Virus record (IMG/VR): IMGVR_UViG_3300023214_000337
Span: 1-49,453 of that record
Source: a virus
Taxonomy: Duplodnaviria > Caudoviricetes
Length of the DNA stretch: 49,453 nt
Reading direction: 5' to 3' (one strand)
In this document: positions 24,566 to 46,385 of the stretch, one piece after another
Layout of the letters: each line of letters opens with the position of its first letter
Numbering within the stretch: position 1 is the first letter of the stretch
Notes under the pieces: generated by a model
What the model was told of the DNA's origin: nothing
The model's input: only the letters and a program-made list of their open reading frames with translations
The model's database searches: none
Program-made: the position numbers and the translations under genes

Positions 24566-24909
24566 GGAACGTAATGGAAGCCTACGGTTTCCGCTACCAA
24601 CGGACGTTGACTTGGGACAAGGCAAACGGGATGTGTCTATTCGGGTTTCACCACCGCACGGAGTTCTGCCTATTTGAGTATCGCGGCAAGATCGAAATGT
24701 ACCCGCGCCGAAAGGCAATCCCGACCGTGTTTGCGGGGAAATCTGAACGGCACAGCGCAAAGCCTGACGAGTTCTACCGCATGGTGGAGCCGCTTGGAAC
24801 GAACCGACTGGACATCTTCGCAAGACGCCAGCGAGAAGGCTGGACGGTGTGGGGGAACGAGGTAGAGGCCCCCCAAAGCAACCCAAAGAAAGGACACTTA
24901 CATGTCTAA
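24562..24909 (+). pseudogene. C-terminal part of an MT-A70-family adenine methyltransferase
   Basis: MEAYGFRY..LTWDK, TEFCL, HSAKP, DIFARRQREGWTVWGNE; the catalytic DPPW N-terminus is missing. Confidence 0.75.
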
Positions 24910-26218
24910 CGAATTGGCACAATTTTGTACCGATCTGAACGATGTCCGGGTCAAGGCTTTTCAGGCATTCTGTAAAGCCGAAACCGCCGACAATCCCTTC
25001 ATGGCCATGATGGCCGCCGGGCAAAGTATGTATAAGCTCCGGAAAATGATCGAGTCGAGCAAGCATATCGATAGCCTGCTCAGCTTGAGGGGGAGCCGTT
25101 TAGGCTTCAAGGTCGACAATCCAGGGTATCCTCGAGCGGTCCTTGTCGACGCATTACTTGAGGCATGGCTTACCGGCGTGCTGCCAGTGGGCAATCAGTT
25201 CAACGTAATTGGCGGGAACTGCTACATCACACGAGAGGGTTTTCGGCATTTGCTTGACAAGAACTGCCGCAAGCTGAAGCACTGGGCGCTACGCACCGTT
25301 GATCATCCCCGCCGCGATAAGCGCGGGTATGCGATCATCAATATGGAAGTTAAATTCCAGCTGGAGGGCGAGAAGAAGACGCGCACAGAGACCATCGAAT
25401 GCCGCGTCCGGCTGCATGACAAGTCGCCCGATGAGGCCGGCGTCGGTAAGGCCGAGAGAAAGGCGTCCAAGTGGCTTTACGAGACGTTGACGGGCGTGAA
25501 AGGCCTCCTGGACGGTGATGTAAGCGAGATATCCACGATTCCGAGCGAAGTCGAAGGGCGCGTCATAGAAGATGACCTGGTTGACCCCGAGACCGGCGAG
25601 GTGCTTGAGGAAGACGAGCACGCGCTTCCCCATACCGCGGCAGCGCATCCGGAGGACGAGACGCCCGAACCGCACGACGAAGAGGAGCAGGTCCTAGACC
25701 TTGAAGAGAATGCGCCTATCGAAGAAGAAGACGATCAGAAAGAAGAAGACGATCAGAAAGAAGAAGACGATCAGAAAGAGGAAGACGATCAGAAAGAGGA
25801 AGACGATCAGAAAGAGGATCCTGATCCGCCCAAGAAGAAAAAGCGCGGGCGACCGAAGGGTTCCAAGAATAAGAAGAAGAAAGCTGGTAAGACTAAGGCG
25901 CCCGATCCCGACGAAGTGCCAACGCCTCCGGACGACGCGCCCGAGAAGCCGCAAAAGAAGACGGAGAAGAAGATCAGCAAAAGCTCTGACGTTGACGTAG
26001 TAAGTCTCATTGAAAAGATCGAGAGCGATGAGCTGTCACAGTCCGAGGCGGCCGATGCGGTGTGGATGATTCTGCAAAACATACCGGACGACACCATCTC
26101 AGCATTTCGCGAGGCATTCGAAGTCGAAGAGCATGAACAACTAAAACAGAGCATCGTCGCGCGCTGGCCGCTGCAGACGCTCAAGCTCACCGCTCAAGTA
26201 GTCAAGGAAAACCTTTAA
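24902..26218 (+). CDS. Putative single-strand annealing (RecT-like) protein with long acidic tail
   Basis: Next to the exonuclease; GVLPVGNQFNVIGGNCYITREG; VDPETGEV; EEDDQK x5 repeat. Confidence 0.45.
   Translation: MSNELAQFCTDLNDVRVKAFQAFCKAETADNPFMAMMAAGQSMYKLRKMIESSKHIDSLLSLRGSRLGFKVDNPGYPRAVLVDALLEAWLTGVLPVGNQFNVIGGNCYITREGFRHLLDKNCRKLKHWALRTVDHPRRDKRGYAIINMEVKFQLEGEKKTRTETIECRVRLHDKSPDEAGVGKAERKASKWLYETLTGVKGLLDGDVSEISTIPSEVEGRVIEDDLVDPETGEVLEEDEHALPHTAAAHPEDETPEPHDEEEQVLDLEENAPIEEEDDQKEEDDQKEEDDQKEEDDQKEEDDQKEDPDPPKKKKRGRPKGSKNKKKKAGKTKAPDPDEVPTPPDDAPEKPQKKTEKKISKSSDVDVVSLIEKIESDELSQSEAADAVWMILQNIPDDTISAFREAFEVEEHEQLKQSIVARWPLQTLKLTAQVVKENL
25724..25816 (+). repeat. 18-bp tandem repeat x5 (EEDDQK)
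   Basis: gaagaagacgatcagaaa units. Confidence 0.9.
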
Positions 26219-28689: not shown

Positions 28690-28956
28690 ATGTGGAGCGC
28701 GATCGCGGCCGCCGTCGGTGTGATCATCACCGGCTTGAAGAAGCTACTTGGGATGGACAATCCAGCAACCACGGAGGTGAATCATGTCGGGAGGAGAGAT
28801 AAAGACCCTGAGATCGATAGCCGCAGCGATCTCAATGACGCTCTTGGTGGCCTTGACGGCGTGCGTGACGATCGGACCGAAGGTGAAGGATCGGATCACG
28901 TTGGTAGAGCAGACGACGAAGCGCCAGCGCGTGGTCGAGGTCGCGAAGGTTCTTGA
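28690..28956 (+). CDS. Small N-terminally anchored membrane protein (i-spanin-like position)
   Basis: MWSAIAAAVGVIITGLKKLLG; overlaps the lipoprotein gene in another frame. Confidence 0.45.
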   Translation: MWSAIAAAVGVIITGLKKLLGMDNPATTEVNHVGRRDKDPEIDSRSDLNDALGGLDGVRDDRTEGEGSDHVGRADDEAPARGRGREGS

Positions 28957-29194: not shown

Positions 29195-29262
29195 TGTATG
29201 TTGCGGCCGAGTTCTTCGCCGCCAACTATGAACCAGCGCCACCTTCTGGGGAGTGAAAGACC

Positions 29263-29565
29263 ATGAGTACAGAAAACACGTCGTCCACGGAGCCCGTGCA
29301 ACCGATTGTTATCTGGCGGTGCCACCCCAATGGCATTGCTCACGGTTTCGAGGAAGGCCACGCGACGAGCAAATGCGGGCTAATGACCGAGGACATGGGA
29401 GACCAAATAGATCCGCGACAGTACTATGAGTGTTGGACGTGCCGAGCTAGGGATGCATGTCGAATCTGTGATGGGAAAAAAAATCTCTACGACTACATAG
29501 AAGAATGCGACGTTGTTTGCTGGTCGTGCAAAGGTTCTGGGTTGCGTTTGGTGCCAGCGAGATGA
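29263..29565 (+). CDS. Small Cys-rich protein
   Basis: CRICDGK and CWSCKGSG motifs. Confidence 0.55.
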   Translation: MSTENTSSTEPVQPIVIWRCHPNGIAHGFEEGHATSKCGLMTEDMGDQIDPRQYYECWTCRARDACRICDGKKNLYDYIEECDVVCWSCKGSGLRLVPAR

Positions 29566-29621
29566 ACTGTAGGCCAGTGTGGGAACGAGCGTTGGCATAG
29601 AGAAATAGAGCGACTAACACG

Positions 29622-30497
29622 ATGAACGACGAACAAACTAAAACCCAGGCTGACACGACCGACGCTCCAAGCGGAACGGCTGATAGTGTTCGCTGCAATG
29701 ACTTGTTGTCAGGCGACAAGATCGTATGCGGTGACAACTGTGACGTAATGGGCCAACTGCCTCGCGAGTGCATCGATCTTGTAGTTACCTCGCCACCATA
29801 CGACGACGCCAGAGAATACGGAGGATTTGTCTTTGACTTCGATTCGGTGCGCAGGAATTTGTGCCGCATTATAAAGGATGGAGCAATTATTGTTTGGGTA
29901 GTGTCAGACACAAGTAGGGACCACTGCGAAAGCCTGACTTCATTCAAGCAAGCCATTGCATTTGTCGACGGCGGGATGAAGTTGCTTGATACGATGATTT
30001 ACCGAAAAAAGGGTGAATTTCCACGTCACGGGCATCGCGTTTATCCGCAAGTGCACGAATATATGTTTGTGTTTTCCAGAGGCAGGCCAAAGACGCTTCA
30101 CCTTTTGAGGGATAAGCCGAATTCATACGCAGGGAAAAAGTATTCACCCACCCTGCGATGCAAAGACGGGAGCATGAAAAAAAGCCATAGCTTTGGTCGA
30201 ATAGCTCCTGAAATGGGAGCAAGGGGAAATGTGTGGGAATATGAAGCAGGCTTCAGGCACTCGTCAACAGATACCATAGCACACAAGCATCCCGCCATAT
30301 TCCCCGAGGCACTAGCCCGCGATCATATCTTGTCTTGGAGCAACCCCGGAGACATAGTCTTAGATCCATTCAACGGCAGCGGAACGACGACAAAGATGGC
30401 CAGAGAGCTTGGCCGCAAGTTTCTCGGAATCGAGATAAATGAAGAGTATTGCGAAATCGCTCGTAAACGTATCGAGCAGCAATTACTTTTCGCCTGA
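29622..30497 (+). CDS. N4-C/N6-A DNA methyltransferase (beta class)
   Basis: VTSPPY, HPAIFP, VLDPFNGSGTT, GIEINEEY. Confidence 0.92.
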   Translation: MNDEQTKTQADTTDAPSGTADSVRCNDLLSGDKIVCGDNCDVMGQLPRECIDLVVTSPPYDDAREYGGFVFDFDSVRRNLCRIIKDGAIIVWVVSDTSRDHCESLTSFKQAIAFVDGGMKLLDTMIYRKKGEFPRHGHRVYPQVHEYMFVFSRGRPKTLHLLRDKPNSYAGKKYSPTLRCKDGSMKKSHSFGRIAPEMGARGNVWEYEAGFRHSSTDTIAHKHPAIFPEALARDHILSWSNPGDIVLDPFNGSGTTTKMARELGRKFLGIEINEEYCEIARKRIEQQLLFA

Positions 30498-30678
30498 TAC
30501 GCGTACACCGGGAGTAACGCCTTTGCTTTTGACTTTCACCACAGAGACCCAGCAACCAAGTTGTTTTTGCCAACAAGTAAAAACTACGCATGGGAAAATG
30601 CCGCGTTGAATTGGACAAATGCGACTTGCTGTGTGCCATTTGTCATCGAGCAGAACACAGCGAGAGCTATTGAGGAGG

Positions 30679-31173
30679 ATGAATATGACTGCACCAAATA
30701 AAGACAACCCCGTTTTGTGTTATGTAGACGGGCCGTGGGCCTACTTTACGACGCAGGCGCTGGAAGATGCATGGGGAGATGATTTTGACGATGCACCGTA
30801 TGAACACAACGCGGGAACGCCATACGGTCCTTGCAAGCACGAAAAGTTTGAGATTATCAAGGTCGCGTGGGACGGCGACTTCGAGACGCCATCCTTCGGG
30901 CATTGCAATAGCCCGTGGAGTGTGGAACAGATTAATGCCGGGGCTGTCGCGTGGTTGCGGACAAGTCGATACAGCCCCGGGAAGCCCGTCGTAATACCGG
31001 CGGGGACAACGATGGAACGATTCTACGCGCTGATACGCAAAGGTGGTGGGACTGTGTATATGGCGAACGCTGCCGATAACCGGCCCGATGGGCCAAAGGA
31101 AAAAGTGATGCCAAACGAATCAGCATGCCGCGCATCATCCTTTCCGATGAACGCGGACTCTGCGGCGCGGTAG
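30679..31173 (+). CDS. Hypothetical phage protein
   Basis: GAGGAGG RBS; WGDDFDDAPYEHNAG motif. Confidence 0.65.
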   Translation: MNMTAPNKDNPVLCYVDGPWAYFTTQALEDAWGDDFDDAPYEHNAGTPYGPCKHEKFEIIKVAWDGDFETPSFGHCNSPWSVEQINAGAVAWLRTSRYSPGKPVVIPAGTTMERFYALIRKGGGTVYMANAADNRPDGPKEKVMPNESACRASSFPMNADSAAR

Positions 31174-31199
31174 CGTCCGCTGAATTGCCCTTGTTGGGC
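31146..31199 (-). mobile_element. attC-like site
   Basis: Minus strand gcccaac-aagggcaattcagcggacgctaccgcgccgcagagtccgc-gttcatc. Confidence 0.55.
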
Positions 31200-31222
31200 A
31201 GCAACTTTCAACCGGAGGAAAA

Positions 31223-31516
31223 ATGTACGACCACATTGAAGCTAAAGAACAACAGGCAGCGGACGCACGCAAGGCCCTCGGCTTGCCGGTTCCGCAAGGG
31301 GGCTGGGCGCTCACCCGCATGTTCGGCGTGCGCGTGCCCGTAGATCGCCCCTGGAGCGAATACCCTATCGGGACCAAGGCGCACGCCATTATGGGTGGAT
31401 ACTGGATTAGGGTCGCGCACGGCTGGAAGTGGTGCACAGGCTCTACCTTCCCCACCCCTGGCGGCGATGCTGTCGGTGCCTGCATTGAGCTGCCCAACGA
31501 TGAGGTGAGCGGATGA
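31223..31516 (+). CDS. Hypothetical protein (cassette between two attC-like sites)
   Basis: GGAGG RBS; stop lies inside an attC-like site. Confidence 0.6.
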   Translation: MYDHIEAKEQQAADARKALGLPVPQGGWALTRMFGVRVPVDRPWSEYPIGTKAHAIMGGYWIRVAHGWKWCTGSTFPTPGGDAVGACIELPNDEVSG

Positions 31517-31564
31517 CAATGGAGCGAAGCGGAATTGGCAGTACGCTCGACCGTCTTGTTGTGC
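31492..31564 (-). mobile_element. attC-like site
   Basis: Minus strand gcacaac-aagacggtcgagcg...gcttcgc...cgctcacctcatc-gttgggc. Confidence 0.7.
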
Positions 31565-32454
31565 TGTTTGTTCGAGAGCAGAGCATCTACAAGGCGATGG
31601 GGCTTGACTGTTACGACCGCTGGCGGGATGCGCGGACGTTTGCTGGCACGGGGCCGGTGATTGCACATCCACCGTGTCGGACGTGGGGAAACTTTCGTCA
31701 CCAAATACCCAAGCGGCCGGAAGAACATGCCCTTGGTCCGTGGGCGGTGAAGCAGGTGAGGCGATGCGGTGGCGTGCTGGAACACCCAAAGGGTAGCGCG
31801 TTGTTTGAGCACTGCGGGTGTGGTGCCGCTGGCGACGTTGGATTTCTCCTGACGGTGGATCAATTCCATTGGGGACACCGGGCCAAAAAACCGACGCGGC
31901 TCTACGTGGTCGGATGCGAGCCAGTGGACGTGCCGGCAATGCCGCACAGAGAAGGCGAGCCGACGCACTGCATTTCGCAAGGGCATGGCGTGCGGATTGG
32001 GCATCCGCGATTCAAGTCGCGGGTTCCGCAATGGGAGCGCGAGGCCACCCCGCCGGGGTTCGCCCGATGGCTGGTGGAACTGGCGCGCAAATGCAGTAAG
32101 CACAACATGAGAATATACGAACTTCGCGTTGACGCCGTGGACTGCTACTACTCCCTCGGCCTGTCAGCGTCCTTAGATGCGCTCAAGCAACAAGTTGAGG
32201 CAATGGACGGACCCGACGGTGGCCCAGTGCATGAATACGCACACGGAACAGAGCAGCTGGAAATCTACGCGCGAGAATTAGGAGAGCTGCAGAGCGATTG
32301 CGCTGTCCCCGGCGTGCTAGTCTGCTCTGCCAAACGCTATTCGTATGTGTCGGATGATGACAAACTCAAATGGCGCAGTAAGGTAACGGGGATACCGCCG
32401 CTCCCGTTGACCGATTTGTTAGGCGGCGGTTGGAGTATCAATCATGTTGGATAA
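31513..32454 (+). CDS. Cytosine-methyltransferase-like fragment (HPPC...VLEHP) fused in frame to a copy of the 36151 gene
   Basis: IAHPPCRTWG, LEHP and KPTRLY motifs; C-terminal part MRIYELRVD... duplicated at 36219-36480. Confidence 0.6.
   Translation: MTMERSGIGSTLDRLVVLFVREQSIYKAMGLDCYDRWRDARTFAGTGPVIAHPPCRTWGNFRHQIPKRPEEHALGPWAVKQVRRCGGVLEHPKGSALFEHCGCGAAGDVGFLLTVDQFHWGHRAKKPTRLYVVGCEPVDVPAMPHREGEPTHCISQGHGVRIGHPRFKSRVPQWEREATPPGFARWLVELARKCSKHNMRIYELRVDAVDCYYSLGLSASLDALKQQVEAMDGPDGGPVHEYAHGTEQLEIYARELGELQSDCAVPGVLVCSAKRYSYVSDDDKLKWRSKVTGIPPLPLTDLLGGGWSINHVG
32104..32377. repeat. Inverted near-identical duplicate of 36219-36480
   Basis: Same MRIYELRVD...KLKWR coding segment with a 12-nt indel and a few SNPs. 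Confidence 0.92.
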
Positions 32455-32692
32455 AACTGTGAAGTGCCCGATTTGTGGGAAGCCGTACAAACTCATGGCG
32501 TTTTACGCTGGCGATCAGTCGGCGTGCCATGCGTGCGTTCGAGAAGCGGAAAGGGCCGTTGCACGTCCGACGCCCCAGGGCGATGAATTTCTCGAGCGAC
32601 TGAAGGAGGCGCAGCGGCGCGGAATAATGGATTTAACGGATGGTCTGCCCGCCGAAGAGGCGATCGAGGAGATCCGCGATGCCGGAAGTTGA
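32444..32692 (+). CDS. Small zinc-binding protein
   Basis: CPICGKPY...CHAC. Confidence 0.55.
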   Translation: MLDKTVKCPICGKPYKLMAFYAGDQSACHACVREAERAVARPTPQGDEFLERLKEAQRRGIMDLTDGLPAEEAIEEIRDAGS

Positions 32693-32743
32693 GCGCGTCG
32701 TCTGGGATACCAATGTCGCCGACTTCGGGAAGGGGAAAGAAAC

Positions 32744-33130
32744 ATGAAAATGGTTAACAGTCATAGAATGCGATGCCCAGAATTGTGGTTGCGTGGATAC
32801 TTTGCGCGTATGAGTTGGAATGAACGCAAGAAAGCTCTTGAGGGTCGCAATTGGTGGCTTTCAGTGCAGCGCGGCGCGACACACAAGATTTATCGTAAGC
32901 GTTCGCCAGAAGTTGCAGAAAACGGGCGTACCTATTTGGGTGAGGTGTTTCGTACCTCTAATGGCTGGAAGTGGAAAGATAACGGTGGCCGCATGGGTCC
33001 AAACGCATGCTTAGGCCAAGGAGAAGGAGTTGGCTACCGTTGCAAATTAGTGTGTCTTTTGGACTTCATCCTGGCGCACCCAAAAATGAAATGCCAATTT
33101 ATGGAGAAATTTGAATCTGCGAACTCTTGA
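32744..33130 (+). CDS. Hypothetical protein
   Basis: Purine-rich RBS; 128 aa. Confidence 0.5.
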   Translation: MKMVNSHRMRCPELWLRGYFARMSWNERKKALEGRNWWLSVQRGATHKIYRKRSPEVAENGRTYLGEVFRTSNGWKWKDNGGRMGPNACLGQGEGVGYRCKLVCLLDFILAHPKMKCQFMEKFESANS

Positions 33131-33291
33131 CCCACGGGTTAACAGGGGCATTTGGTTAACAGAAAACAGGATGTAGAAATATGAGCAGAAAGGACTTACG
33201 AAAAGCGCAGATGCAGAGTTCGGCAAGGGTTGCTCTTGGGAAGTCGCGCCCCGGATCTCATAGTCCAAGCCCGCCGAAGGGGAGATAGCAC

Positions 33292-33684
33292 ATGGCCCGC
33301 GTTTTATTGTCCATCAAGCCCGAGTATGCCGAAGCAATTCTCGATGGCGAGAAGCGATTCGAGCTGCGACGCAAGATTTTCCGAGACAGAAGTGTGACCC
33401 GCGTCGTAATTTATGCATCGAGCCCGGTCAAGCGCGTCGTAGGGGAGGTCGAGGTCAAGGGCATCATCGAGGCACACCCAGACGATCTATGGGAACGGAC
33501 CCGAGACGGAGCTTGCGTAGCGCGGGATTTCTTTGACGAATACTTCAAGAACCGGGACGTGGGATACGCGATCGAAGTGGCGCATCCGAAGCGATACACG
33601 ACTCCCCTTAGCCTTTCCGCATTTTGTGTGGCACGCCCACCTCAATCGTTCTGCTATCTGAGGGGCATTCAAAAACATCTTTGA
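33292..33684 (+). CDS. ASCH-domain protein
   Basis: LLSIKPEYAEAILDGEKRFELRR...YASSPVKRVVG...PPQSFCYL. Confidence 0.9.
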   Translation: MARVLLSIKPEYAEAILDGEKRFELRRKIFRDRSVTRVVIYASSPVKRVVGEVEVKGIIEAHPDDLWERTRDGACVARDFFDEYFKNRDVGYAIEVAHPKRYTTPLSLSAFCVARPPQSFCYLRGIQKHL

Positions 33685-33734
33685 GTTTTCCGCTTTGGCG
33701 ATAGAATAGGTGCCCCTTAAGGCTGGAGATTGAG

Positions 33735-34106
33735 ATGACTGTTTACGAGATGAGTGTCGCGCTTGGATCGGACGAGCCGCCTTACACACCGATCGGCATT
33801 GGCCGCAACGTCGGCTTCTTTCTCGCCGTGTTGACCTGGTGGCACGACAAGGACCGCGACGAAGACGCATGCATTCTGCATATTCCAACCAAGAAAACCG
33901 TTGGCGTGGTACGCGGCCACGATACAGCCCGAGCGGTAGCCAAGGAGATCAACAAGATCGTCCCGATGGACAAGCTTGCACTCGCAGATGACATGGAAGT
34001 CGCCAAGGCATTCCCGGGCCATTGGCGACAGTACATGGACGCCCAGTGGTATTCGCTGTGGCAGCAATACCAGTCTTACACCGAGTGGAGGGGACAGCAA
34101 TGTTAG
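33735..34106 (+). CDS. Hypothetical protein
   Basis: GGAG RBS; 123 aa. Confidence 0.55.
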   Translation: MTVYEMSVALGSDEPPYTPIGIGRNVGFFLAVLTWWHDKDRDEDACILHIPTKKTVGVVRGHDTARAVAKEINKIVPMDKLALADDMEVAKAFPGHWRQYMDAQWYSLWQQYQSYTEWRGQQC

Positions 34107-34282
34107 TGATTCAGCAACTGATTCTTTTAGCGGTACTATTTATTAACGGCGTGTACATGGGCGCCGTTGGTATCGAGGCGATGCAGGGATTCAGCTGGCA
34201 ATACATGGCGATGTTTATCGCGTTGCTTTATTTTACGAGAGTGATTGTCTATAAAATGCTCAGCGTCGATCACCCTGCTTGA
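34100..34282 (+). CDS. Small two-TM membrane protein
   Basis: MLVIQQLILLAVLF...; GGAGG RBS. Confidence 0.5.
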   Translation: MLVIQQLILLAVLFINGVYMGAVGIEAMQGFSWQYMAMFIALLYFTRVIVYKMLSVDHPA

Positions 34283-34285
34283 TGA

Positions 34286-35041
34286 TTATGATAATTCTTC
34301 GTTGGCAGTACCAAAGTCGAACCGCCCTTGCGCGTGCCACCGCTCAAGGCGTTTCACCGCTACGTCAACCCACCGCTCGTCAATCTCGATGCCGATGGCC
34401 TTGCGCCCGGTCTCCAGCGCGGCGATCAGCGTCGTGCCGCTCCCGCAGAACGGGTCAAGCACGGTGTCGCCCTCGTTCGTGAACTGGCACAGCACGGTGT
34501 CGCCCTCGTTCGTGAACTGGCACAGCACGGTGTCGCCCTCGTTCGTGAACTGGCACAGCAACACCTTCCACGCTTGCAACGGCTTGACGCACGGGTGCCC
34601 GTTCTTCTCCGGTGCCTCGGTCAACGTGAAACTGCATCGCTTCCCCATGTTCTTTCCGGTCAAGTTGCGGCCATAGTAAAAGATCGGTTGTGCGTCCATG
34701 TTCCCGAACGACTGCAATCCAACCGCTGCCGGTTGGTAGAAACATCCGAAGCTGTCCGGTTGCGGATACCACATCATGTTTTTGATGCCTGGCGTCAACA
34801 CCACAGCCTCGCATGCCTCAATCAGTCGGCGCACCGTGGCGGCGCACACGTCGGCCACATAATCCGGCGTGTCTTGCCATTCTTCACCATATCCGCCCTT
34901 GTTGCGGGCCCGGTTGATCGTGCCGCGTGCGCCTTCAATGCCGTATGGCGGATCAGTCAGCACGGCATCGGCCTTACCGGACCACTCCCGGCAGTCGCCG
35001 TGCCACAACTGGACGTTCTCGTTTTCGTATGCGATCTTCAT
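34286..35041 (-). CDS. DNA methyltransferase (DPPY, beta class) with an in-frame 33-bp triplication
   Basis: LTDPPYG, HPCVKP, LDPFCGSGTT; QFTNEGDTVL x3. Confidence 0.88.
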   Translation of the reverse strand: MKIAYENENVQLWHGDCREWSGKADAVLTDPPYGIEGARGTINRARNKGGYGEEWQDTPDYVADVCAATVRRLIEACEAVVLTPGIKNMMWYPQPDSFGCFYQPAAVGLQSFGNMDAQPIFYYGRNLTGKNMGKRCSFTLTEAPEKNGHPCVKPLQAWKVLLCQFTNEGDTVLCQFTNEGDTVLCQFTNEGDTVLDPFCGSGTTLIAALETGRKAIGIEIDERWVDVAVKRLERWHAQGRFDFGTANEELS

Positions 35042-35060
35042 TCCGTGTCCTCCAAAGAAC

Positions 35061-35119
35061 TGCCAACAACCGGGTCGAGAGTACGCGGAGTACCGCGACT
35101 CTCACCCGAAACGTTCGCC
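35061..35119 (+). mobile_element. attC-like site (59 bp)
   Basis: tgccaac-aaccgggtcgagagt-acgcggagtaccgcg-actctcacccgaaac-gttcgcc, with bulged bases in the stem. Confidence 0.75.
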
Positions 35120-35122
35120 AGG

Positions 35123-35578
35123 TCAATCAATCTCGTCAATAAACTCGGCCACGTTGATCGCATCTGGAACCATCGCAAGCGTTCCTCCTTCTATCACGTC
35201 CACCCACGACACGTTTACACGGGGCGCAAATGTGCGAACGAACAAGTGGCCGTCTTGCTCCATCGCCCACACAGCGACGTTCAGGCGGTCCCACTCTGGA
35301 TGATCGCCCTGCGGCCACAGCCGCACGTCAATCCTGTTGCGTGCCCGCTTGCGTTCCTTGTCCCAACCTGGCTTGTGGAAGCCCTTCGGTAATCCGAGGG
35401 CAATCGAATTGCCCAGCCCGATCATCGTCCCAAGAACATGACTTACGCATCGGCGCTCGTTCTGGTCGTACGTGTAAACGCCGCAGTCAGTGTCTCCCCC
35501 GCAGACGCACCCCGGGCACTGAAACTGGCGAACAAGGCGGTCAACCGGAGTGCCGGTCGGCGTCGTTTCTGAATCCAT
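35123..35578 (-). CDS. Hypothetical Cys-containing phage protein; start lies inside an attC-like site
   Basis: MDSETTPTGTPVDRLVRQFQCPGCVCG; GGAG RBS. Confidence 0.65.
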   Translation of the reverse strand: MDSETTPTGTPVDRLVRQFQCPGCVCGGDTDCGVYTYDQNERRCVSHVLGTMIGLGNSIALGLPKGFHKPGWDKERKRARNRIDVRLWPQGDHPEWDRLNVAVWAMEQDGHLFVRTFAPRVNVSWVDVIEGGTLAMVPDAINVAEFIDEID

Positions 35579-35616
35579 AGTCTTTCTCCGGCACCCGGTT
35601 ACCTTGGTCGTTATGT
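35527..35616 (+). mobile_element. attC-like site
   Basis: ggcgaac-aaggcggtcaaccggagtgccgg...ccggcacccggttaccttggtc-gttatgt. Confidence 0.75.
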
Positions 35617-35858
35617 GAATGAAAATCCTTCGCTCTACAGTAAGCTCCGACGAGGTAGAGAGAGCCGAAGGTTGTAGCCATTGCGCCTGCTCCAAAGAGC
35701 GACCCAGCCCATCCTCCATCCGCGCCAGCAGCGGCACCAAGGGCGATTAGAAACGCCATGCTTCCCGAGCCGGGATGGTAGCCGTAGCCCTCCAGATACC
35801 CGCAACCCTGCCAAGTCCACAGAACAAGGCGAGGGAGGCAACGCCTTCGCTCTGTCAT
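35541..35858 (-). CDS. Small membrane protein (cassette)
   Basis: Starts and ends inside attC-like sites; hydrophobic Gly/Ala segments. Confidence 0.5.
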   Translation of the reverse strand: MTERRRCLPRLVLWTWQGCGYLEGYGYHPGSGSMAFLIALGAAAGADGGWAGSLFGAGAMATTFGSLYLVGAYCRAKDFHSHNDQGNRVPEKDYGFRNDADRHSG

Positions 35859-35885
35859 TCCGAAACCTCACTTTCTGCGTTGGGC
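35819..35885 (+). mobile_element. Degenerate attC-like site
   Basis: acagaac-aaggcgagggagg...cctcactttctgc-gttgggc. Confidence 0.5.
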
Positions 35886-36130
35886 GAGATCACTTCGCCG
35901 TACTCGCCAATCTGGCGCATCACTTCGCGGCCTTCACTGGTCAATGCCGGGTGATCCGTTATGTATTGCAACTGAAAGCAAAACGGCTTTTCCCATTCGG
36001 CCACCAGACGCGCCAACTCATTGAAGAATACGGCTTGATTCTTGTCGCTCATCTGGGAGAATTCAAAAGCCAACTCTTGCGGCGTCGGCTCTACATGCAG
36101 GGTTACTTTTCTCTGAATCATTGTTCTCAC
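35855..36130 (-). CDS. Hypothetical phage protein
   Basis: TPQELAFEF...QAVFFNEL...QLQYI. Confidence 0.6.
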   Translation of the reverse strand: MRTMIQRKVTLHVEPTPQELAFEFSQMSDKNQAVFFNELARLVAEWEKPFCFQLQYITDHPALTSEGREVMRQIGEYGEVISPNAESEVSE

Positions 36131-36150
36131 CCCGTAGGAAGTTTTTTCAG

Positions 36151-36477
36151 CTATTTCTTGTTTTCGCTCCCTTCTTGAAACTCAACTTGGGCGTTATCCG
36201 CATCAGCCGCCCACTCAGTGCGCCATTTGAGTTTGTCATCATCCGACACATACGAATAGCGTTTGGCAGAGCAGACTAGCACGCCGGGGGCAGCGCAATC
36301 GCTCTGCAGCTCTCCTAATTCTCGCGCGTAGATTTCCAGCTGCTCTGTTCCGTGTGCGTATTCATGCGCCGGGCCGTCCATTGCCTCAACTTGTTGCTTG
36401 AGGGCCTCTAAGGACGCGGACAGGCCGAGGGAGTAGTAGCAGTCCACGCCGTCAACGCGAAGTTCGTATATTCTCAT
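36151..36477 (-). CDS. Hypothetical protein (full-length copy of the MRIYELRVD gene)
   Basis: Duplicated at 32107; ends in a half attC-like site. Confidence 0.6.
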   Translation of the reverse strand: MRIYELRVDGVDCYYSLGLSASLEALKQQVEAMDGPAHEYAHGTEQLEIYARELGELQSDCAAPGVLVCSAKRYSYVSDDDKLKWRTEWAADADNAQVEFQEGSENKK

Positions 36478-36479
36478 GT

Positions 36480-36983
36480 TCACCCCGATACCAACTCGCC
36501 ACGGCACGCGCGGAGCCGGTCGGAATCCTCATGCTCTGTCTCGCACAGCAAAACAACGTAATCCCGACGCAGACCGCTGCCGTGATTCGCGAATCCGCCC
36601 ACCATCGTCGCTCGGTCACGGGACTCGGCAACGAATCGCAACACTGTGTTGTGGGAATCGCTATCCCACACGATGTCCACGCCTCCGTTCGGGCTGCAAT
36701 GAACGCTGACCCCACGAGGACACGGAAAATACGTCCCATCGCAATCATCGACGTGCTGCTCTTGGCATTCACGGCACGCATCCGTGACGGCCTCGACGAT
36801 GTCGTACATATCGACACGCTCATCGCCTTCCGCGTCCCAATCGAGACGCTGAATAAAATCCTGGACGTAAGCAGGCAACATTGCTCCCGCAGTGGATGCG
36901 GCCGCACACCAGCGATGTACACCGTCCGCGATTGATAGTGATTCTTGAAACAACATGGGAGACTCCGAAGAATGGGTGAACAA
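36480..36983 (-). CDS. Hypothetical protein
   Basis: Acidic 167-aa ORF; start uncertain. Confidence 0.5.
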   Translation of the reverse strand: MFTHSSESPMLFQESLSIADGVHRWCAAASTAGAMLPAYVQDFIQRLDWDAEGDERVDMYDIVEAVTDACRECQEQHVDDCDGTYFPCPRGVSVHCSPNGGVDIVWDSDSHNTVLRFVAESRDRATMVGGFANHGSGLRRDYVVLLCETEHEDSDRLRACRGELVSG

Positions 36984-37065
36984 AACGGTGCACCGGAGCC
37001 GCGGTCGGCGCGTTTAATTGAGGTCGAGGTCATCGGCCGCGGCCCGGTGACCTTGGACGTTAGCC
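36975..37065 (+). mobile_element. attC-like site
   Basis: ggtgaac-aaaacggtgcaccggagccgcggtcg...cggccgcggcccggtgaccttggac-gttagcc. Confidence 0.75.
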
Positions 37066-37112
37066 AGACTACGTTTACCCATGCCGATGCTCCGCTCCGC
37101 AGTAGTCTACTG

Positions 37113-37269
37113 AGATCAGGGGGGGAGGGAATCGAACCCTCGAGGAACGGCCTTTCACCGTTTCGTGGTCTGCCGGTTGGCATTCGCGACTGCCACTGCC
37201 GACATTGGCCACTGCCCCTTCCTGCGCTAACAGGCTGGAACGGGCCCAACGCCCGAACCCCCCTGATCT
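37113..37269 (-). ncRNA. tRNA-like multi-hairpin RNA with a canonical T-arm
   Basis: 12-bp closing stem agatcagggggg/cccccctgatct; T-arm gaggg-TTCGATT-ccctc just before the 3' strand; four internal hairpins. Confidence 0.6.
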
Positions 37270-37743
37270 TTATTCCTCCTGGTCCAGCACTTCCGGCGCC
37301 CAGCGCCGCTCCTCGTATGAATCTACAGCAGGTAGCGCAGCGGTCAAGCACGAAATAGGTGCGTGCGCCCAGTACGCACCTGGCCATGGATTTGACGTTC
37401 TGTACTGTCGGGAGGTTTTCTAGCGAGGGCGACTGCCAAAAATCCCAGATTCCTTTTTATGTATATGGCGGAATGGTGATGGACCATCGTGGCAGTTTGG
37501 GATCTCTTTGAATGGCCTCCTCTATTTTCCTCATTGTTGATTTTCCAACACGGACCCCTTTTTTGTAGACCTTTCTTACCAATCGGACAATGGGGTGCAT
37601 TTGGCGATAGGTCATGCTTCTGGCCAGTCCGAGAGTCTTTTCGATTGAATCTAGGAGTTCGCCGCCCCAGTGTTGCTCTAAGATGCCCCATGACCTTTCT
37701 ATCGGATTATATTTGCTGTGATACGGAGGGTGAAACCACGCCG

Positions 37744-37963: not shown

Positions 37964-38031
37964 GGATTAAGAAGGTTAGAGAGAGAGCGCGGGAATGAGC
38001 CCGCGCCGAACGAAACGAGTGAGAAAAAACC

Positions 38032-38619
38032 ATGAATATTGAAAACGTAGCAAAATATATTCGCGCGAAAGCTTCAGCCGGGATGCTGAAGTACGTAATC
38101 CAAGCGGCGGAACGGCACCCGTTGCTGTACGTTATGCCATGCGCGGATGAAAGCGAGTATAGTACTGAAATAATATGCATTGAAGATGACGATGGAGACG
38201 AGTTTTATTTTTACGCTTTGTACGATGAATATGCCATGCGCGGAGCGCGTATCCGCGCTCCGAAGGAGGTGGGATATTATGTACATGTGCTGAATGATGG
38301 CTGGCGTGATGATTTCATGGACATCGGTGGCCACATCTGTGCTACCGATATTGGCGCGGCGCAGTTTGTGCGCGCCAAAAAGCTAGCCGTTGTCCTGAAA
38401 GGCGTACCTGAGTACGCCTATGATTACGATTGCCATAGTTTTTTGTATAAAAATACGCGCTACGCCGGAACGCGCGTAGGGAACCAATCCAGACCCGAAT
38501 ATTGGATCGCTCCAGCCAGCTGCGAACTAGTCGCCATTGCTGGAGATGATGGGTTAGCCCGCAAGATGCGCGTTGCATCGTGGGATTTTGGAGCGATCGA
38601 AGGGAAAGCGCGGGAATGA
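38032..38619 (+). CDS. Hypothetical protein
   Basis: Follows repeat RBS; stop inside the next repeat. Confidence 0.7.
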   Translation: MNIENVAKYIRAKASAGMLKYVIQAAERHPLLYVMPCADESEYSTEIICIEDDDGDEFYFYALYDEYAMRGARIRAPKEVGYYVHVLNDGWRDDFMDIGGHICATDIGAAQFVRAKKLAVVLKGVPEYAYDYDCHSFLYKNTRYAGTRVGNQSRPEYWIAPASCELVAIAGDDGLARKMRVASWDFGAIEGKARE

Positions 38620-38649
38620 GCCCGGCGCCAAGAGCAGAGGGAGAAAACC

Positions 38650-38883
38650 ATGGAACTGAAAATACGAGGTGTTCGAAGTATCCGCCGGGCCCTTGAGGCC
38701 GGGCATTCGGCCTCAGAGATCCTGGCCGCCGCCCGAGAGAGAGGCACCTGGACCGAAGGCGAGATCGTAGAGGCATTCCAGGACTGTGGAATACCGGCAG
38801 ACTTTCAGGATCGAAAATGTGTCCTGCTGGATGCCGGCGCGGGAATGAGCCCGCGCCGAACGAAACGAGGGAGAAAACCATGA
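38650..38883 (+). CDS. Hypothetical protein ending in an ankyrin remnant (LLDAGA)
   Basis: Follows repeat RBS. Confidence 0.6.
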   Translation: MELKIRGVRSIRRALEAGHSASEILAAARERGTWTEGEIVEAFQDCGIPADFQDRKCVLLDAGAGMSPRRTKRGRKP

Positions 38884-39128
38884 AAATAAAGATAACACAG
38901 GTGCGCGGGAAAGACGGTAGGACGCTCTGCCTGCGAACGTGCGAAACATTCACGCTGGCTTTTCTGGATTCAGAGGGAGACGTTGTCCAAAGCACTCCCA
39001 AAGAATTGGCGGAAGCACTCGATCTGGGAGAGCTAGCCCGCATAGAGCGGGATGGGGATGCGAATGAAAGTGAGAAGGCTGCGGAAGCACTGCGCTACGC
39101 TATGGCCGTAAGTTCCGGCTCGCTGTGA
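38880..39128 (+). CDS. Hypothetical protein
   Basis: Follows repeat RBS (MKIKITQV). Confidence 0.65.
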   Translation: MKIKITQVRGKDGRTLCLRTCETFTLAFLDSEGDVVQSTPKELAEALDLGELARIERDGDANESEKAAEALRYAMAVSSGSL

Positions 39129-39232
39129 TCCCGCAGCGTATGCGCACAGTCCAGGGATAAGCCGCGCCCCACGCTTATAAATGGGGCATTGAGAGAGAGC
39201 GCGCCCAATCGGGGCGCGCAAGGGAGACAGAC

Positions 39233-39406
39233 ATGAAACCAGGTGACTACATCTACATCAAGATCTACGGCGAGTCGGTCGAGCGCTGCCGGATCCTCGA
39301 GCATCACGGCATGGGCACAATCGACGTCGAGCGATTAGAGGACGGAAAATGCTTCCGCGTTAGCGGGCTGCCATTAACCATGAACGCAGGAAAGGCGCGG
39401 GAATGA
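39233..39406 (+). CDS. Small hypothetical protein (57 aa)
   Basis: GGGAG RBS; MKPGDYIYIKIY...GKARE*; stop inside the repeat loop. Confidence 0.6.
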   Translation: MKPGDYIYIKIYGESVERCRILEHHGMGTIDVERLEDGKCFRVSGLPLTMNAGKARE

Positions 39407-39432
39407 GCCCGCGCCAGAGAGAGGAGACAACC

Positions 39433-40044
39433 ATGAGCACCACGACCACCACCACGACCCCGAAAATATCGCGCCTCCGCCTCGGATCCGCCGACGCTGG
39501 GCGCTGCGATCCGCCCGGCGGATTCCAGTCGTCGATCACCTGCGAGATCGACGTCTGCCGGCGCGGTCGTCCGTACCGCGCCGAACTAGCGGCGCAGTAC
39601 GGAGGAAATCAGGGGTACTTTCAAATCGATTACTCGCACGGCCCTTGGGTCGCGCGAGGCGACACGCCGCGCGAGGCCGCCCTGGCCGCCCTGGCCGTCG
39701 TCCCCGAGGAGCACGCCGACGACCTCGCGGCGGCCGTCGAAGAGGCCCTCGCCGGGATGCCCGAGTCCGTCGAGTGGGCGGACGTGGCCCTCGCGGAGGC
39801 CGCCCGCATTCGCGGTCTGATCGACCACGGGGACGGCGGTCGATCGTCCGTCCGCGCCGGCGGGCAGGTCGTCGCGTGGCTCGACGACCCCGACGACCGG
39901 CGGGACCTCCGCATTCGGCTCGAACGTCAGCTCAGGCGGTCGGCCGGTCCGTCCGATCCGCATCTGGCGTCCGTGTCGGACGCCCAGCTCATAGAGGAGG
40001 CTCGCCGCCGAGGGATTGACAGGGCGATGGACGACGCCCGTTGA
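39433..40044 (+). CDS. Hypothetical protein
   Basis: Follows repeat RBS; high GC. Confidence 0.65.
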   Translation: MSTTTTTTTPKISRLRLGSADAGRCDPPGGFQSSITCEIDVCRRGRPYRAELAAQYGGNQGYFQIDYSHGPWVARGDTPREAALAALAVVPEEHADDLAAAVEEALAGMPESVEWADVALAEAARIRGLIDHGDGGRSSVRAGGQVVAWLDDPDDRRDLRIRLERQLRRSAGPSDPHLASVSDAQLIEEARRRGIDRAMDDAR

Positions 40045-40086
40045 GCGGCGTCTTGGAATCGCGTCCGCGAGAGAGAGGAGAAAACC

Positions 40087-40710
40087 ATGAAAATAGAAGT
40101 CACAGGCCCTCGGGATGTGGCCATCACGATCAGAGACGTAGACGTAGATTCCCTGTCTGTGGACATCGACGATCTGCGGCAGGGGTTGCGCGAGGCCATC
40201 GAGGATGACGATGAGACCGACGCCCGCGACCTCGCGCAGACTGCGGAGGCCTGCGAGGAGGCCATAGAGTGGCTCCGCCGGCTGATCGCTGCCGGCGCGG
40301 ACGTCGACGCGCGCGACGCCGGCGGCCAAACGCTGCTCCACTGGGCGGCGGAGGAGGGCCACGCCAAGATCGTCCGCCAGCTGATCGATGCCGGCGCGGT
40401 CGTCGACGCCCGCGCCGAGGACGACTCCCGCACGCCGCTGCATCTGGCGGCGAAGACGGGCCGCACCGAGATCGTGCGCATCCTCCTGGATGTCCTCGCC
40501 TCGGTCGACGCCCGCACCGCCGCCGGCGCCCGCACGCCGCTGCACCTGGCGGCTATGTTTGGCCACGCCGAGATCGTCCGCCGGCTGCTGGATGCCGGCG
40601 CGGAGGTCGACGCCCGCGACGCCGGCGGCCGCACGCCGCTGGAGCTGGCGCGCCGTTGCGGCTACACCGAGATCGCCGGCATCCTGCTGGATGAAGGCGC
40701 CGAGGCCTGA
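40087..40710 (+). CDS. Ankyrin-repeat protein
   Basis: About four repeats of GxTPLHLAA..GHxEIVRxLLDAGA. Confidence 0.95.
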   Translation: MKIEVTGPRDVAITIRDVDVDSLSVDIDDLRQGLREAIEDDDETDARDLAQTAEACEEAIEWLRRLIAAGADVDARDAGGQTLLHWAAEEGHAKIVRQLIDAGAVVDARAEDDSRTPLHLAAKTGRTEIVRILLDVLASVDARTAAGARTPLHLAAMFGHAEIVRRLLDAGAEVDARDAGGRTPLELARRCGYTEIAGILLDEGAEA

Positions 40711-41148
40711 CCCCGGCAAGGTCGACTCCAGCCCCAGGCGCGCGTGATGGCGCGCAGGGGCTCGAGGCATTGAGAGCGGCGCGGGAATGAGCCCGGCGCC
40801 GAGAGCAGAGGGAGACAGACATGCGATACAAGCATGAGGCATTGAGAGACATTATTAAGTCATTGCCCCGCCACATAGATATCTATGTGGCAGTGGAGAA
40901 CGCCTCCACGCTGGCGAGACTCGAGACCGAGGCAGCAGTAAACCTGCTGCAGAACGAGCCGCCGGCGTGGAGGCTCGTCATCCGAGACAACGGAGACGAC
41001 GCGCATGTCATTATTGCGTGCGACGCTGACGAGGCTGGAGTCGACCTTGCCGAGGCCTGACCCCGGCAAGGTCGACTCCAGCCCCTGGCGCGCGTGACGG
41101 CGCGCAGGGGCTCGGGGCAGTGAGAGAGCGCGGGAATGAGCCCGCGCC
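40699..41148 (+). repeat. Two ~95-bp direct repeats (40699-40797; 41049-41148) including gene ends and hairpins
   Basis: gccgaggcctgaccccggcaaggtcgactccagcccc.ggcgcgcgtga.ggcgcgcaggggctcg... Confidence 0.9.
40821..41060 (+). CDS. Hypothetical protein flanked by the ~95-bp direct repeats
   Basis: Repeat RBS; shares its AEA* end with the ankyrin gene. Confidence 0.65.
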   Translation: MRYKHEALRDIIKSLPRHIDIYVAVENASTLARLETEAAVNLLQNEPPAWRLVIRDNGDDAHVIIACDADEAGVDLAEA

Positions 41149-41166
41149 GAACGAGAGGAGAAAATC

Positions 41167-42228
41167 ATGAACAGATCCCGCATATGGGCCCTCGGGGCAC
41201 CCGACCCCGAAATGGAGGCGATCGAGCGCATCCTCCGGGCGGCCGACGAGGCCGTCCTCTACGCGACGGCTGACGGTCGCCGCGTGCACCCCGGGTCCGC
41301 CTACCGGGCCGATGGTGTGATCGGTGCCGATGGCGCCGTGTACACACCGCTGCCTGGCGGCGTGGACCCGCACTCGATCCGGTGGGTCGAGTGCGAGATC
41401 CCGGGATTGCCCCGTGATCATGTCATCGACCACCACCGCCCCGGCGACACCGGCTACGGTCGGCCGCCGGCGGAGTTTTTGCCGGCATCGTCGATCGGAC
41501 AATTGATAGCGGAGCTAGCGCGACTGGCTTTTGCAGCCTCTTCTTACCGCATCCTCGACTGGGATCATGTCTCCGCCGGCAGCCATGACGGGGAGTACTC
41601 CGCTCATGTCGTTTCAGAACAGCGCCGCGAACTCTGCACCGTTCCCAGCGAAATCGAAGATGGCATACATCCAGGGGCATATGTCCGGGTGCGGGACGTG
41701 GGGTGGCTCGTCGGAACCTACACTGCCGGCCACGAGTGTGGCGGCTGCTGGGACTATGCCATCGTGCCGCACGATCTCGTTCTCGCCGCCGCCGCGGATC
41801 ACTGCCTCGGCGCCGCCTACCGGGGCGAGTGCCCGGGCGTGGAACCGGACGATCTGATGGAATGGCGCGCAGAGAGTCGCGCCAAGTACCAGGGTCGCCA
41901 GGTGGCGGATGTGTTGGCGGACATCCGCTACGCGCAGCAGGAGTTGCGCACAGCAAAAAAGCTCACTATAGGCGGGTGGACGCTGCACGAGGTCCGCGAC
42001 ATGCGGCGAGATAAGCCTATCCCAGAATTACCCGAGGCCGCTACGCGGCTTGGCCTTGGGTACATTGCTGGCCCGATCCCGGCCCCGGACGGCCGTGAGA
42101 AATACACCTGCTCGGGAACATTCGAACAGGTGAAATTATTCATGGAGTTGTGGGCGCCGGCCAACGGGCTCGTGGGAATCTACGGCGATCCCGTCCGCGG
42201 GTTCGCCGGCGGGTACGCCGAGGAGTAA
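41167..42228 (+). CDS. Hypothetical protein with DHH-like motifs
   Basis: DPEM, VIDHH, AAADH. Confidence 0.6.
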   Translation: MNRSRIWALGAPDPEMEAIERILRAADEAVLYATADGRRVHPGSAYRADGVIGADGAVYTPLPGGVDPHSIRWVECEIPGLPRDHVIDHHRPGDTGYGRPPAEFLPASSIGQLIAELARLAFAASSYRILDWDHVSAGSHDGEYSAHVVSEQRRELCTVPSEIEDGIHPGAYVRVRDVGWLVGTYTAGHECGGCWDYAIVPHDLVLAAAADHCLGAAYRGECPGVEPDDLMEWRAESRAKYQGRQVADVLADIRYAQQELRTAKKLTIGGWTLHEVRDMRRDKPIPELPEAATRLGLGYIAGPIPAPDGREKYTCSGTFEQVKLFMELWAPANGLVGIYGDPVRGFAGGYAEE

Positions 42229-42233
42229 CATAT

Positions 42234-42330
42234 CCTGCCGTAGCCGCGCATCTCCCCCTCACGGCGCGGCTACGGCCTCATCAGGGCCAGCCCCATCCCT
42301 GGGATACATGGGGGCACCTATCTCCAGCCC
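42234..42330. repeat. Multi-hairpin intergenic module, also at 47371-47464 (and partly at 19882)
   Basis: gccgcg.atctccccctcacg.cgcggc...catcagggc..gcccc.tccctgggatacatgggggcac. Confidence 0.88.
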
Positions 42331-42477
42331 CTGGCGCGCGTGAAGTCGCGCTGGGGCTCGGAGCGATGGCGCGCAAGGAAACCCTACCTCCACGCGGTGC
42401 GCGCTGGGCGGCTGCAATGGGCAGCTGGCGGACAGGGACACACACATGCCGGACAACCCGGCAAAGGAGGAGACATC

Positions 42478-43488
42478 ATGAAGATGCTATTTAAAGTAAA
42501 CCAGGAAGAGGCGTTGCGCTTGGGCATCGACGCCCCCTCTAGCACGGTTTTGTTAGACGTGGACCCAACGAATCTCACCCAGAGTCAGCGCGATCTGCTG
42601 GCTCGTTGCTTGTGGGATGGCCACGACTGCACGAGGCCATTCTGGACGGACTCCGGCCACTCCTTTCGTATCATGCTCACGGAGCCCTCGGTGGAGGGCC
42701 TCACGCTCGAACTGGAGCGCATCGAGCGCGAGGAGCAGGCCAGAGTGGAGGCCCGCAAAGAGGATGCCACCGCGCGCATTCGCGCGGCGCTAACTACGCG
42801 CCGCGAGCGCGAAATTGTGCAGCTAGACAAGAATGGGGGGGGTACGAGCTACCCCCGTGACGCCGTGGTGTCGACCACGGTCGAGGTCCCTATGATTTCG
42901 TCGGATTTGGATGGCCACCTACAGTATGTGGATGGCGATCTGCGCGCACAATATGAGGCTCGCAAGGCTGAGGCCATAGCCGAGCGCGAAAGAATACTAG
43001 ATGCGGCACGAGAGCGGTTGTTGCCGGAGCTTCGCGCTAAGCTCGCAGAGCGCGCCGAGGCCGCGCGCGCGCAAAAGGACGCCTACGATCAGCTGTATCA
43101 GCAGCTACCGGAGGTGCTCCGGCAGCGCGATGCAGCCGGGTTCGCGCCGGCTTCGGAAATCGAGGGCAAATTGAAGGCGCTGCTCTGTGAGAGATTGCCC
43201 GAAGGCTGGGAGCGCGTCTATAAATGGGAGGCGGGGGCGGCAGAGTCACTGACAGACAGGCAATATAAGTGCTTGTCTGGGATCCGGGAATCGATTGCGG
43301 CCCTAAACCTGGAAGGAGACGTGGATGTGGAGCCTGTCTCGTGGGCCTATCACAGGCCGGCTGAAGACACCGACGACCCCGAAGACATCGACCACGACGA
43401 CGAGGTGTACGTGAACAACGGCACCTACGCGAAGCTGGTATGGCATCATCCGTCCGGCGTGTCCCTCACGGCTCGCTGGGATTTGTAG
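42478..43488 (+). CDS. Hypothetical coiled-coil protein
   Basis: AGGAGG RBS before MKMLFKV. Confidence 0.7.
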   Translation: MKMLFKVNQEEALRLGIDAPSSTVLLDVDPTNLTQSQRDLLARCLWDGHDCTRPFWTDSGHSFRIMLTEPSVEGLTLELERIEREEQARVEARKEDATARIRAALTTRREREIVQLDKNGGGTSYPRDAVVSTTVEVPMISSDLDGHLQYVDGDLRAQYEARKAEAIAERERILDAARERLLPELRAKLAERAEAARAQKDAYDQLYQQLPEVLRQRDAAGFAPASEIEGKLKALLCERLPEGWERVYKWEAGAAESLTDRQYKCLSGIRESIAALNLEGDVDVEPVSWAYHRPAEDTDDPEDIDHDDEVYVNNGTYAKLVWHHPSGVSLTARWDL

Positions 43489-43546
43489 GAGCCCCACAGG
43501 GTGCGCTCGAATAATCTAGGACATCGCCAGGGCTGTTGCATTTCAA

Positions 43547-43625
43547 GATGTCCCAGGCTGGCTAATCAGCCTGTTTGGAGCGCCGTTGCCCCGTGGCGCG
43601 ACACCAACGGGGCACCAATAAGAGC
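43547..43625. repeat. ~78-bp two-hairpin repeat, second copy at 44622-44699
   Basis: gatgtcccaggctggctaatcagcctgtttggagcgccgttgccc...caccaacggggcaccaataagagc. Confidence 0.9.
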
Positions 43626-44168: not shown

Positions 44169-44183
44169 AGAGGAGGAAGGCAG

Positions 44184-46363: not shown

Positions 46364-46385
46364 GATACATCGAGAGGAGAAAGGC

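Follow-up and report, generated by a model that had tools for sequence, protein, structure and literature searches.

Integrons are treated as a bacterial tool and, more recently, as stores of anti-phage genes. Their cassettes carry attC recombination sites of R''-L''-L'-R' layout with bulged bases and matching R'' and R' boxes (Cury et al. 2016, PMC4889954; Loot et al. 2017, PMC5371416, both in their accessible parts), and a preference for the bottom strand orients cassettes correctly to the promoter Pc (PMC5371416). Groups of at least two sites with no nearby integrase gene (intI) are called attC-site clusters that lack an integron integrase (CALINs; PMC4889954). Phage CALINs with methyltransferase cargo are already on record, and the accessible text of Qi et al. 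2023 (PMC9892861) reports that 5 of the 6 phage sites tested recombined with IntI1/attI1, the bottom strand better than the top; TJE1 and PH101 are called typical there, and divergent sites are noted in P12002L. The present analysis concerns virus record IMGVR_UViG_3300023214_000337, which is linear, 64% complete according to CheckV, and identical with the whole 49,453-nt stretch analysed (the window). Between 29 and 37 kb it holds small genes bounded by attC-like hairpins. The reading preferred here, with a probability of about 0.62, is that the hairpins form two rows of integron-type attC sites, facing each other and decayed in part, with genes on the opposite strand, and that the rows were assembled cassette by cassette by an integron integrase (IntI) from outside.

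The likeness to phage CALINs lies in attC clusters without an integrase and in methyltransferase cargo; that to bacterial CALINs lies in the site layout, the bulged bases, the R''/R' match and the presence of at least two sites with no intI nearby. However, all five complete sites of the window are reversed with respect to their genes, whereas opposition of gene and site is not described as a rule in the accessible text of Qi et al. 2023, and some window sites supply starts and stops. In contrast to bacterial cassettes, genes lie on the bottom strand, attC stands at the 5' end of the gene and translation can start inside attC, so that the orientation favoured in PMC5371416, as far as its accessible text goes, would leave the gene antisense to Pc. 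Phage CALINs being published, strand reversal is, against the accessible text, the differing feature; no paper describing reversed phage cassette arrays was found in the literature searched, whose coverage mostly leaves out subscription journals. The locus works like an integron cassette array and falls under the CALIN definition within the window, and it departs from canonical cassette orientation.

attC sites of the window

A complete site was defined as AAC, 5 nt, an 8-nt L'' with an extra base at position 4, a second bulge, a 7-nt L', 5-6 nt and GTT. A geometry scanner found five such sites, four inside 29200-37300 and the fifth at 43806-43865; the four compare with a mean of 0.01 and a maximum of 1 in 100 dinucleotide shuffles. 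A covariance model (R1), built for this work and distinct from that of IntegronFinder (47 bacterial sites outside the seed pattern, 95.4% of cells paired, 177 double changes), gave 78.1 bits to 36975-37065, 77 to 35527-35616, 31 to 35061-35119, 30.4 to 43806-43865 and 23.5 to 31492-31564, with 13.3 and 13 bits as the next best scores; since the model and the arm profiles were trained on loci retrieved with a pattern from two window sites, they are not fully independent for those two. Twelve arms of at least 13 bits were found in the region with the arm profiles (shuffled mean 0.22). The extra L'' base and the second bulge, which define the bottom strand, are present at all five complete sites, with a bottom-strand G in four and a C in 36975. 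In minimum-energy folds the L arms are paired in 5/5 and the R box in 3/5; two of the five fold clearly better than shuffles (z -4.7 and -4.1), the others giving z of -1.4, -0.9 and -1.0. On geometry and covariance together, the window hairpins are integron-type attC sites.

An earlier, sequence-only reading had listed six complete sites. Four of them are canonical hairpins of 23.5-78.1 bits (31492-31564, 35061-35119, 35527-35616 and 36975-37065), and the other two are damaged. In 31146-31199, rejected as a full attC, only the R''-L'' arm is attC-like, the spacer is 6 nt and 13 bits are reached over another span; in 35819-35885 the two arms do not pair (7.3 bits). Four of the half sites it had proposed are recovered by the arm profiles at 17-29 bits (29289-29314, 29686-29711, 31062-31087 and 32399-32424), and a fifth, 36175-36199, stays at <9 bits. 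That reading did not include the complete site 43806-43865 or the R' boxes that stand alone at 32100, 34301 and 36478.

In bacteria, the seed pattern matched at least 131 loci, and 120 of those listed are titled Planctomycetota. An intI above the TIGR02249 cut-off occurs in 4/5 tested genomes with seed-pattern arrays; in one genome (G001) such a gene adjoins the attC array and diverges from it. A further search pattern gave 8 loci, with a complete site in one.

Orientation of genes and sites

By bulged bases and covariance model, the top strand is minus at 29-32 kb and plus at 35-37 kb, with genes opposite: the two blocks face each other, block 1 having plus-strand genes (29-33 kb) and block 2 minus-strand genes (34-37 kb). 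The check on both strands that had been suggested, run with our own model, gives the two long sites 78.1 versus 9.2 and 77 versus 9 bits by strand, and the reversal noticed earlier in both blocks stands. All five complete sites break the canonical rule that the gene lies upstream of, and co-oriented with, the attC top strand; two Pfam-verified methylases are among the reversed genes, and GC skew follows the coding strand in the window. Exposure on the lagging strand (PMC5371416) was considered as a possible cause of the reversal.

In other loci, gene strands were assigned by a dicodon model of our own. A first tally gave 23 opposite versus 2 same in seven viral loci and 364 same versus 57 opposite in bacteria. 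In a second tally, the 15 viral loci, from which duplicates of other loci and loci without a complete site were excluded, gave flank calls of 51 opposite versus 4 same (by locus 10 opposite, 5 ties or no site, 0 same), and 80 bacterial loci gave 309 same versus 35 opposite (by locus 72 same, 6 ties or no site, 2 opposite). Among the phages in Figure 2 of Qi et al., TJE1, H101 and P12002L were checked, MW202573 being left out. Genes of TJE1 are co-oriented with the sites; H101 has three sites with top strand plus among annotated minus-strand genes, with unannotated plus-strand frames in two units; in P12002L one site, seen by eye, is opposite to its genes and one runs along them, both missed by scanner and model. 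With TJE1 canonical and the other two mixed, reversal is therefore common in viruses, not universal. In one viral integron (L163:3759-5776) a cassette co-oriented with its attC is present twice among reversed ones.

Cassette units and marks of past movement

The features of the two blocks are as follows.

Block 1
29263-29565 (+): 100-aa gene with an N-terminus encoded across attC left arm 29289-29314 (R''-L'', top strand -, 17.7 bits)
29622-30497 (+): N6/N4 DNA methyltransferase (PF01555, E 2.5e-44), with an N-terminal extension ending in attC left arm 29686-29711 (17.2 bits)
30685-31173 (+): 162-aa gene of no known family, reading through right arm L'-R' 31062-31087 (25.2 bits)
31146-31199 (-): damaged attC, R'' box 31193-31199 intact (13 bits)
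31223-31516 (+): 97-aa cassette gene with its stop inside the next attC; own R''/R' match 7/7
31492-31564 (top strand -): complete attC containing one stop and one start codon (23.5 bits)
31513-32106 (+): phrog_12600 cassette gene, ending at R' box 32100-32106, with in-frame fusion to the next gene; as a weak lead, possibly a methyltransferase relative
32104-32377 (+): duplicated cassette gene, copy 1; identity to copy 2 starts at an AAC triplet
32372-32424 (-): attC that retains R'', L'' and L' but has lost R' (arm profile 29 bits, covariance model 13.3 bits)
32444-34282 (+): five further genes, one with an ASCH domain; no complete site; the two blocks converge here

Block 2
34286-35041 (-): N6/N4 DNA methyltransferase cassette; R' box 34301-34307 matches R'' 35061-35067 at 7/7
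35061-35119 (+): complete short attC (31 bits); in virus locus L171 a different gene is headed by a site nearly identical to it
35123-35575 (-): 150-aa cassette gene with attC-encoded N-terminus; most homologues are short at the N-terminus
35527-35616 (+): complete Planctomycetota-type attC with GGAG and ATG on the bottom strand (77 bits)
35541-35858 (-): 105-aa open frame between two sites; own R''/R' match 6/7
35819-35885 (+): damaged attC, arms unpaired (7.3 bits)
35855-36121 (-): 88-aa gene with a C-terminal tail derived from an attC site
36175-36199 (+): weak right-arm remnant, R' box 36193-36199 (<9 bits)
36219-36480 (-): duplicated gene, copy 2, starting at R' box 36478-36484
36480-36956 (-): 158-aa cassette gene; own R'' (36975) and R' (36478) match 7/7
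36975-37065 (+): complete Planctomycetota-type attC (78.1 bits); a close relative heads another gene in virus locus L007

In a circular cassette, R'' pairs with the R' of the same cassette. The own R'' and R' match perfectly over the four outer bases in 5/7 window units, which were chosen by the analyst, the 34301 box having been found by looking for the complement; pairings between neighbours reach 0-3 of 4, and five perfect matches were reached in 0 of 200,000 random draws. The seventh unit is imperfect, with 6/7. Perfect own matches were likewise found in 14/23 viral cassettes (permutation mean 1.0) and in 119/150 bacterial cassettes (79%).

A 274-nt gene is present once per block (32104-32377 and 36219-36480) with different neighbours. 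Identity of the copies, which are still 94% alike, starts at the AAC triplet (32104/36480); at these very bases the assemblies of other runs are interrupted too. As an inverted repeat of 274 nt, the duplicated gene could also invert the 3.8 kb between its copies; contigs break there. The homologue of the phrog_12600 gene in one viral locus (L156) stays similar as far as the same R' box, after which a different attC follows; that in another (L158) has a third pair of boxes. Near-copies of an attC head different genes, the 35061 type in L171 and the 36975 type in L007. The breakpoints coincide with the AAC/GTT triplet, and the sequence shared there amounts to only 3-7 nt. Judged from their sequences, the units carry marks of past integrase movement. 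The view of the locus as a viral CALIN-like array of reversed cassettes is supported: R''/R' matches and triplet breakpoints speak for assembly by an integrase, and with regard to site clustering (at least two attC close together) block 2 has three complete sites within 2 kb, and in block 1 a single complete site is accompanied by remnants.

Start and stop codons inside the sites

The sites do supply starts, ribosome-binding sites and stops, as had been claimed: GGAG-ATG at 35575 lies inside attC 35527-35616, and TGA 31514-31516 and ATG 31513 lie inside attC 31492-31564. A Shine-Dalgarno sequence plus ATG opening a long bottom-strand frame is found in 11/27 long viral sites versus 0/235 bacterial ones, the sites not being independent. 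When homologues of 35123-35575 were compared at the protein level, most of the 116 scored have their start 4-16 residues ahead of the first conserved motif, long N-terminal extensions like that of the window being seen in a few; two viral homologues are without attC, and the Atlas gave no usable match for this gene. The coexistence of attC-headed and plain members in one family fits a grafting of attC onto ordinary phage genes, which we infer, and makes the family a testable handle on cassette genesis.

Integrase and attI

No match to PF00589 was found at E 10 across the window, and tblastn of the window with viral IntI gave a best E of 1.3, with no intI remnant. A complete integron, with intI and attI beside the array, is not present within the window, in agreement with the earlier statement that no integrase accompanies the array. 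That a host IntI acts in trans is not established, the record being linear and incomplete and other viruses with reversed sites carrying their own IntI.

One viral locus (L158) encodes an IntI above the TIGR02249 cut-off (288 bits). IntI relatives are present in 12 viral loci, on the strand of most neighbouring genes, and a conserved attI-like site lies 50-95 nt before intI in 10 of the 11 viral loci with upstream DNA; a viral gene often stops there. Loci L159-L170 form a clade of viral integron integrases with this conserved attI-like site, embedded among same-strand viral genes. In these platforms (L158-L170) viral genes end at the attI-like crossover on the intI strand and reversed attC sites lie nearby in some, and one carries the homologue of the phrog_12600 cassette of the window; the window differs in having neither intI nor that attI. 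A complete 46.9-kb virus (G411) has 9 model matches on one strand and no TIGR02249 match; IntI-free carriers therefore exist.

Proposed assembly of the array

In the preferred reading, an integron integrase would add one circular cassette at a time, and its source would be either the host, likely related to Planctomycetota, or a co-infecting virus. On the mRNA strand each cassette would run 'attC first, gene second', the attC loop often giving the ribosome site and the first codons and the next attC the stop. Reversal may have originated with a viral intI and attI inside a viral operon, transcription entering the array from the far end: as attI fixes attC orientation and the array would be transcribed toward intI, only bottom-strand genes would be expressible. 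Placement of viral intI/attI on the strand of viral genes is thus the likely explanation of the reversal. Loss of one arm would fix a useful gene in place, the protein-coding arm staying, and the methylases would protect viral DNA from restriction. Such viruses likely keep a swappable gene pool of their own, with the integrase predicted to come from outside the sequenced part.

If real, a strand-reversed viral cassette pool would place the same machinery on the other side of the host-phage conflict. It would offer a site-specific path to phage mosaicism and account for the attC-derived ends of many small phage proteins.

Weighing the explanations

Several observations count against this assembly by an outside IntI. 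At least 7 of the 11 named sites are damaged or half sites, and the positions of three R' boxes were assigned post hoc. In copy 2 of the duplicated gene the 3' end stops 20 nt before the R' box is reached, and copy 1 has no R' box, a displacement from the crossover that a deletion in copy 1 would explain. A search of 401 genomes from the phylum to which G001 belongs gave no 35061-type arm, so that the host call rests on two sites. A viral attI profile reached at best 5 bits in the window versus 18-43 bits in leave-one-out tests, only one attI type being profiled. Around viral intI genes there are only 6 complete sites, with flank calls of 8 opposite and 4 same. Roughly one third of the virus genome lies outside the sequenced part. 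A contig (L181) that may share the source of the window is 99.6% identical over 30239-33311 (~3 kb) with the same gene order, and no rearrangement or excision joints of the array were found in contigs of 4 runs of one study, contigs being prone to drop rare variants.

The last two observations bear on the claim that the virus shuffles its cassettes today, which is not shown; with many decayed sites and no rearranged form seen, present mobility of the viral cassettes is unproven. No close relative with a different array was found, a search with 24902-25690 giving no viral locus, and cultured phages resembled the DNA of the two blocks in methylase stretches only; a metagenome scan yielded one near-identical contig and two weak matches without DNA similarity. 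The array might accordingly be a frozen relic, built by IntI in an ancestor and now immobile, with arms kept only as ribosome sites and protein ends. The prevalence of damaged sites, the fixed order in L181, whose differences from the window cluster in the 31062 half site, and the lack of joints in contigs and of attI or intI remnants in the window would all suit such a relic. It is nevertheless judged unlikely, if worth serious consideration, since three adjacent block 2 sites keep full geometry, two with G and T bottom-strand bulges, and the duplicated copies have stayed so similar (94%). Improbable as well is an IntI with attI encoded by the virus itself in the unsequenced part of its genome. 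Room for it exists: a 76,917-nt contig also carries two array proteins, therefore ~27 kb of genome is unseen, and IntI is carried by the 12 viral loci mentioned above. Elsewhere, however, attI and intI adjoin the last cassette; here the matching block ends (32.4-34.3 kb) are sequenced and neither is present, and the complete virus with 9 sites does without IntI.

It is very improbable that the sites serve a different recombinase, be it Xer-like or a phage integrase, or that they mark places where homologous recombination is frequent: some viruses with these sites do have a non-IntI tyrosine recombinase, but the sites differ in sequence yet share IntI-type geometry and bulges, the breakpoints fall at a triplet with only 3-7 nt shared, and PF00589 has no match in the window. 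Hardly credible is a piece of host integron array captured by the virus and lying inverted in it. Planctomycetota chromosomes commonly have sites of the type to which two in the window belong, and prophage capture of host arrays is described in the accessible part of PMC9892861; yet inversion of a segment flips gene and site together and therefore cannot reverse one against the other, the cargo matches phage families, with two viral homologues lacking attC, and the bottom-strand start signal occurs in 0/235 bacterial sites.

A wider idea, which we consider doubtful, extends the preferred assembly by an outside IntI to a mirror-image viral integron economy, using the same integrase and hairpins with attC-first bottom-strand cassettes, new ones being made by grafting attC onto phage genes. 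Were it true, a host cassette caught by a virus (many are anti-phage) would be silent, as would a viral cassette caught by a host; attC would be grafted at GTT near the start of a phage gene, and plain and attC-headed members would be before-and-after pairs for cassette creation.

Genome context and further features

Two features lie outside the blocks.

37706-37734 (-): sigma-70-like promoter match (10/12) pointing into block 2 from its far end; a consensus match only
43806-43865 (-): single complete attC outside the two blocks (30.4 bits), reversed too, with gene 43890-44168 on the plus strand

Promoter and terminator scans were little above chance (11 versus 6.4 and 11 versus 10.7). A lone attC left arm at 20305-20330 (12.5 bits, top strand plus) precedes a minus-strand start codon and is reversed as well. 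Isolated sites such as 43806-43865 and 20305-20330, and attI-less arrays, could arise via IntI insertion at a short triplet, as in single attC sites lacking integron integrases (SALINs) and insertion at secondary GWT sites (bioRxiv 10.1101/2022.09.11.507474), shown in the accessible text for ordinary cassettes in bacterial chromosomes and not for reversed viral ones.

A tRNA-like fold at 37118-37218 (-), with a clear long variable arm, T arm and acceptor half, was missed by ARAGORN and Rfam. It sits between R' 37059-37065 and an R''-like box at 37225-37231 (6/7 match), a position that would suit an RNA cassette or a remnant of attP. Inside the second methylase, a 33-nt unit is tripled in frame (34448-34560), and raised contig depth in run X2 suggests that this is real.

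The 69 frames scanned in the window encode a helicase, primases, a PD-(D/E)XK exonuclease, an HNH nuclease and methylases, with no match to capsid, terminase or integrase families. Every run covering 28709-28712 (four letters) and 37245 (one extra A) differs from the window, which may therefore hold small errors. Ankyrin-repeat genes lie at 40087-40710 and 49276-49453; the record ends inside the second, and contigs continue beyond. Many genes from 37974 to 49140 are preceded by repeated heads of a second kind, made up of a GC hairpin followed by GAGGAG...ATG (families D3, D5, D7 and D10-D13). Such heads resemble the regulatory cassettes reported for T4-type phages. At one of these repeats, 38838 is joined to 41049 in contigs of two runs, with short sides. 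A tRNA with an unassigned four-base anticodon reading is located at 12814-12891.

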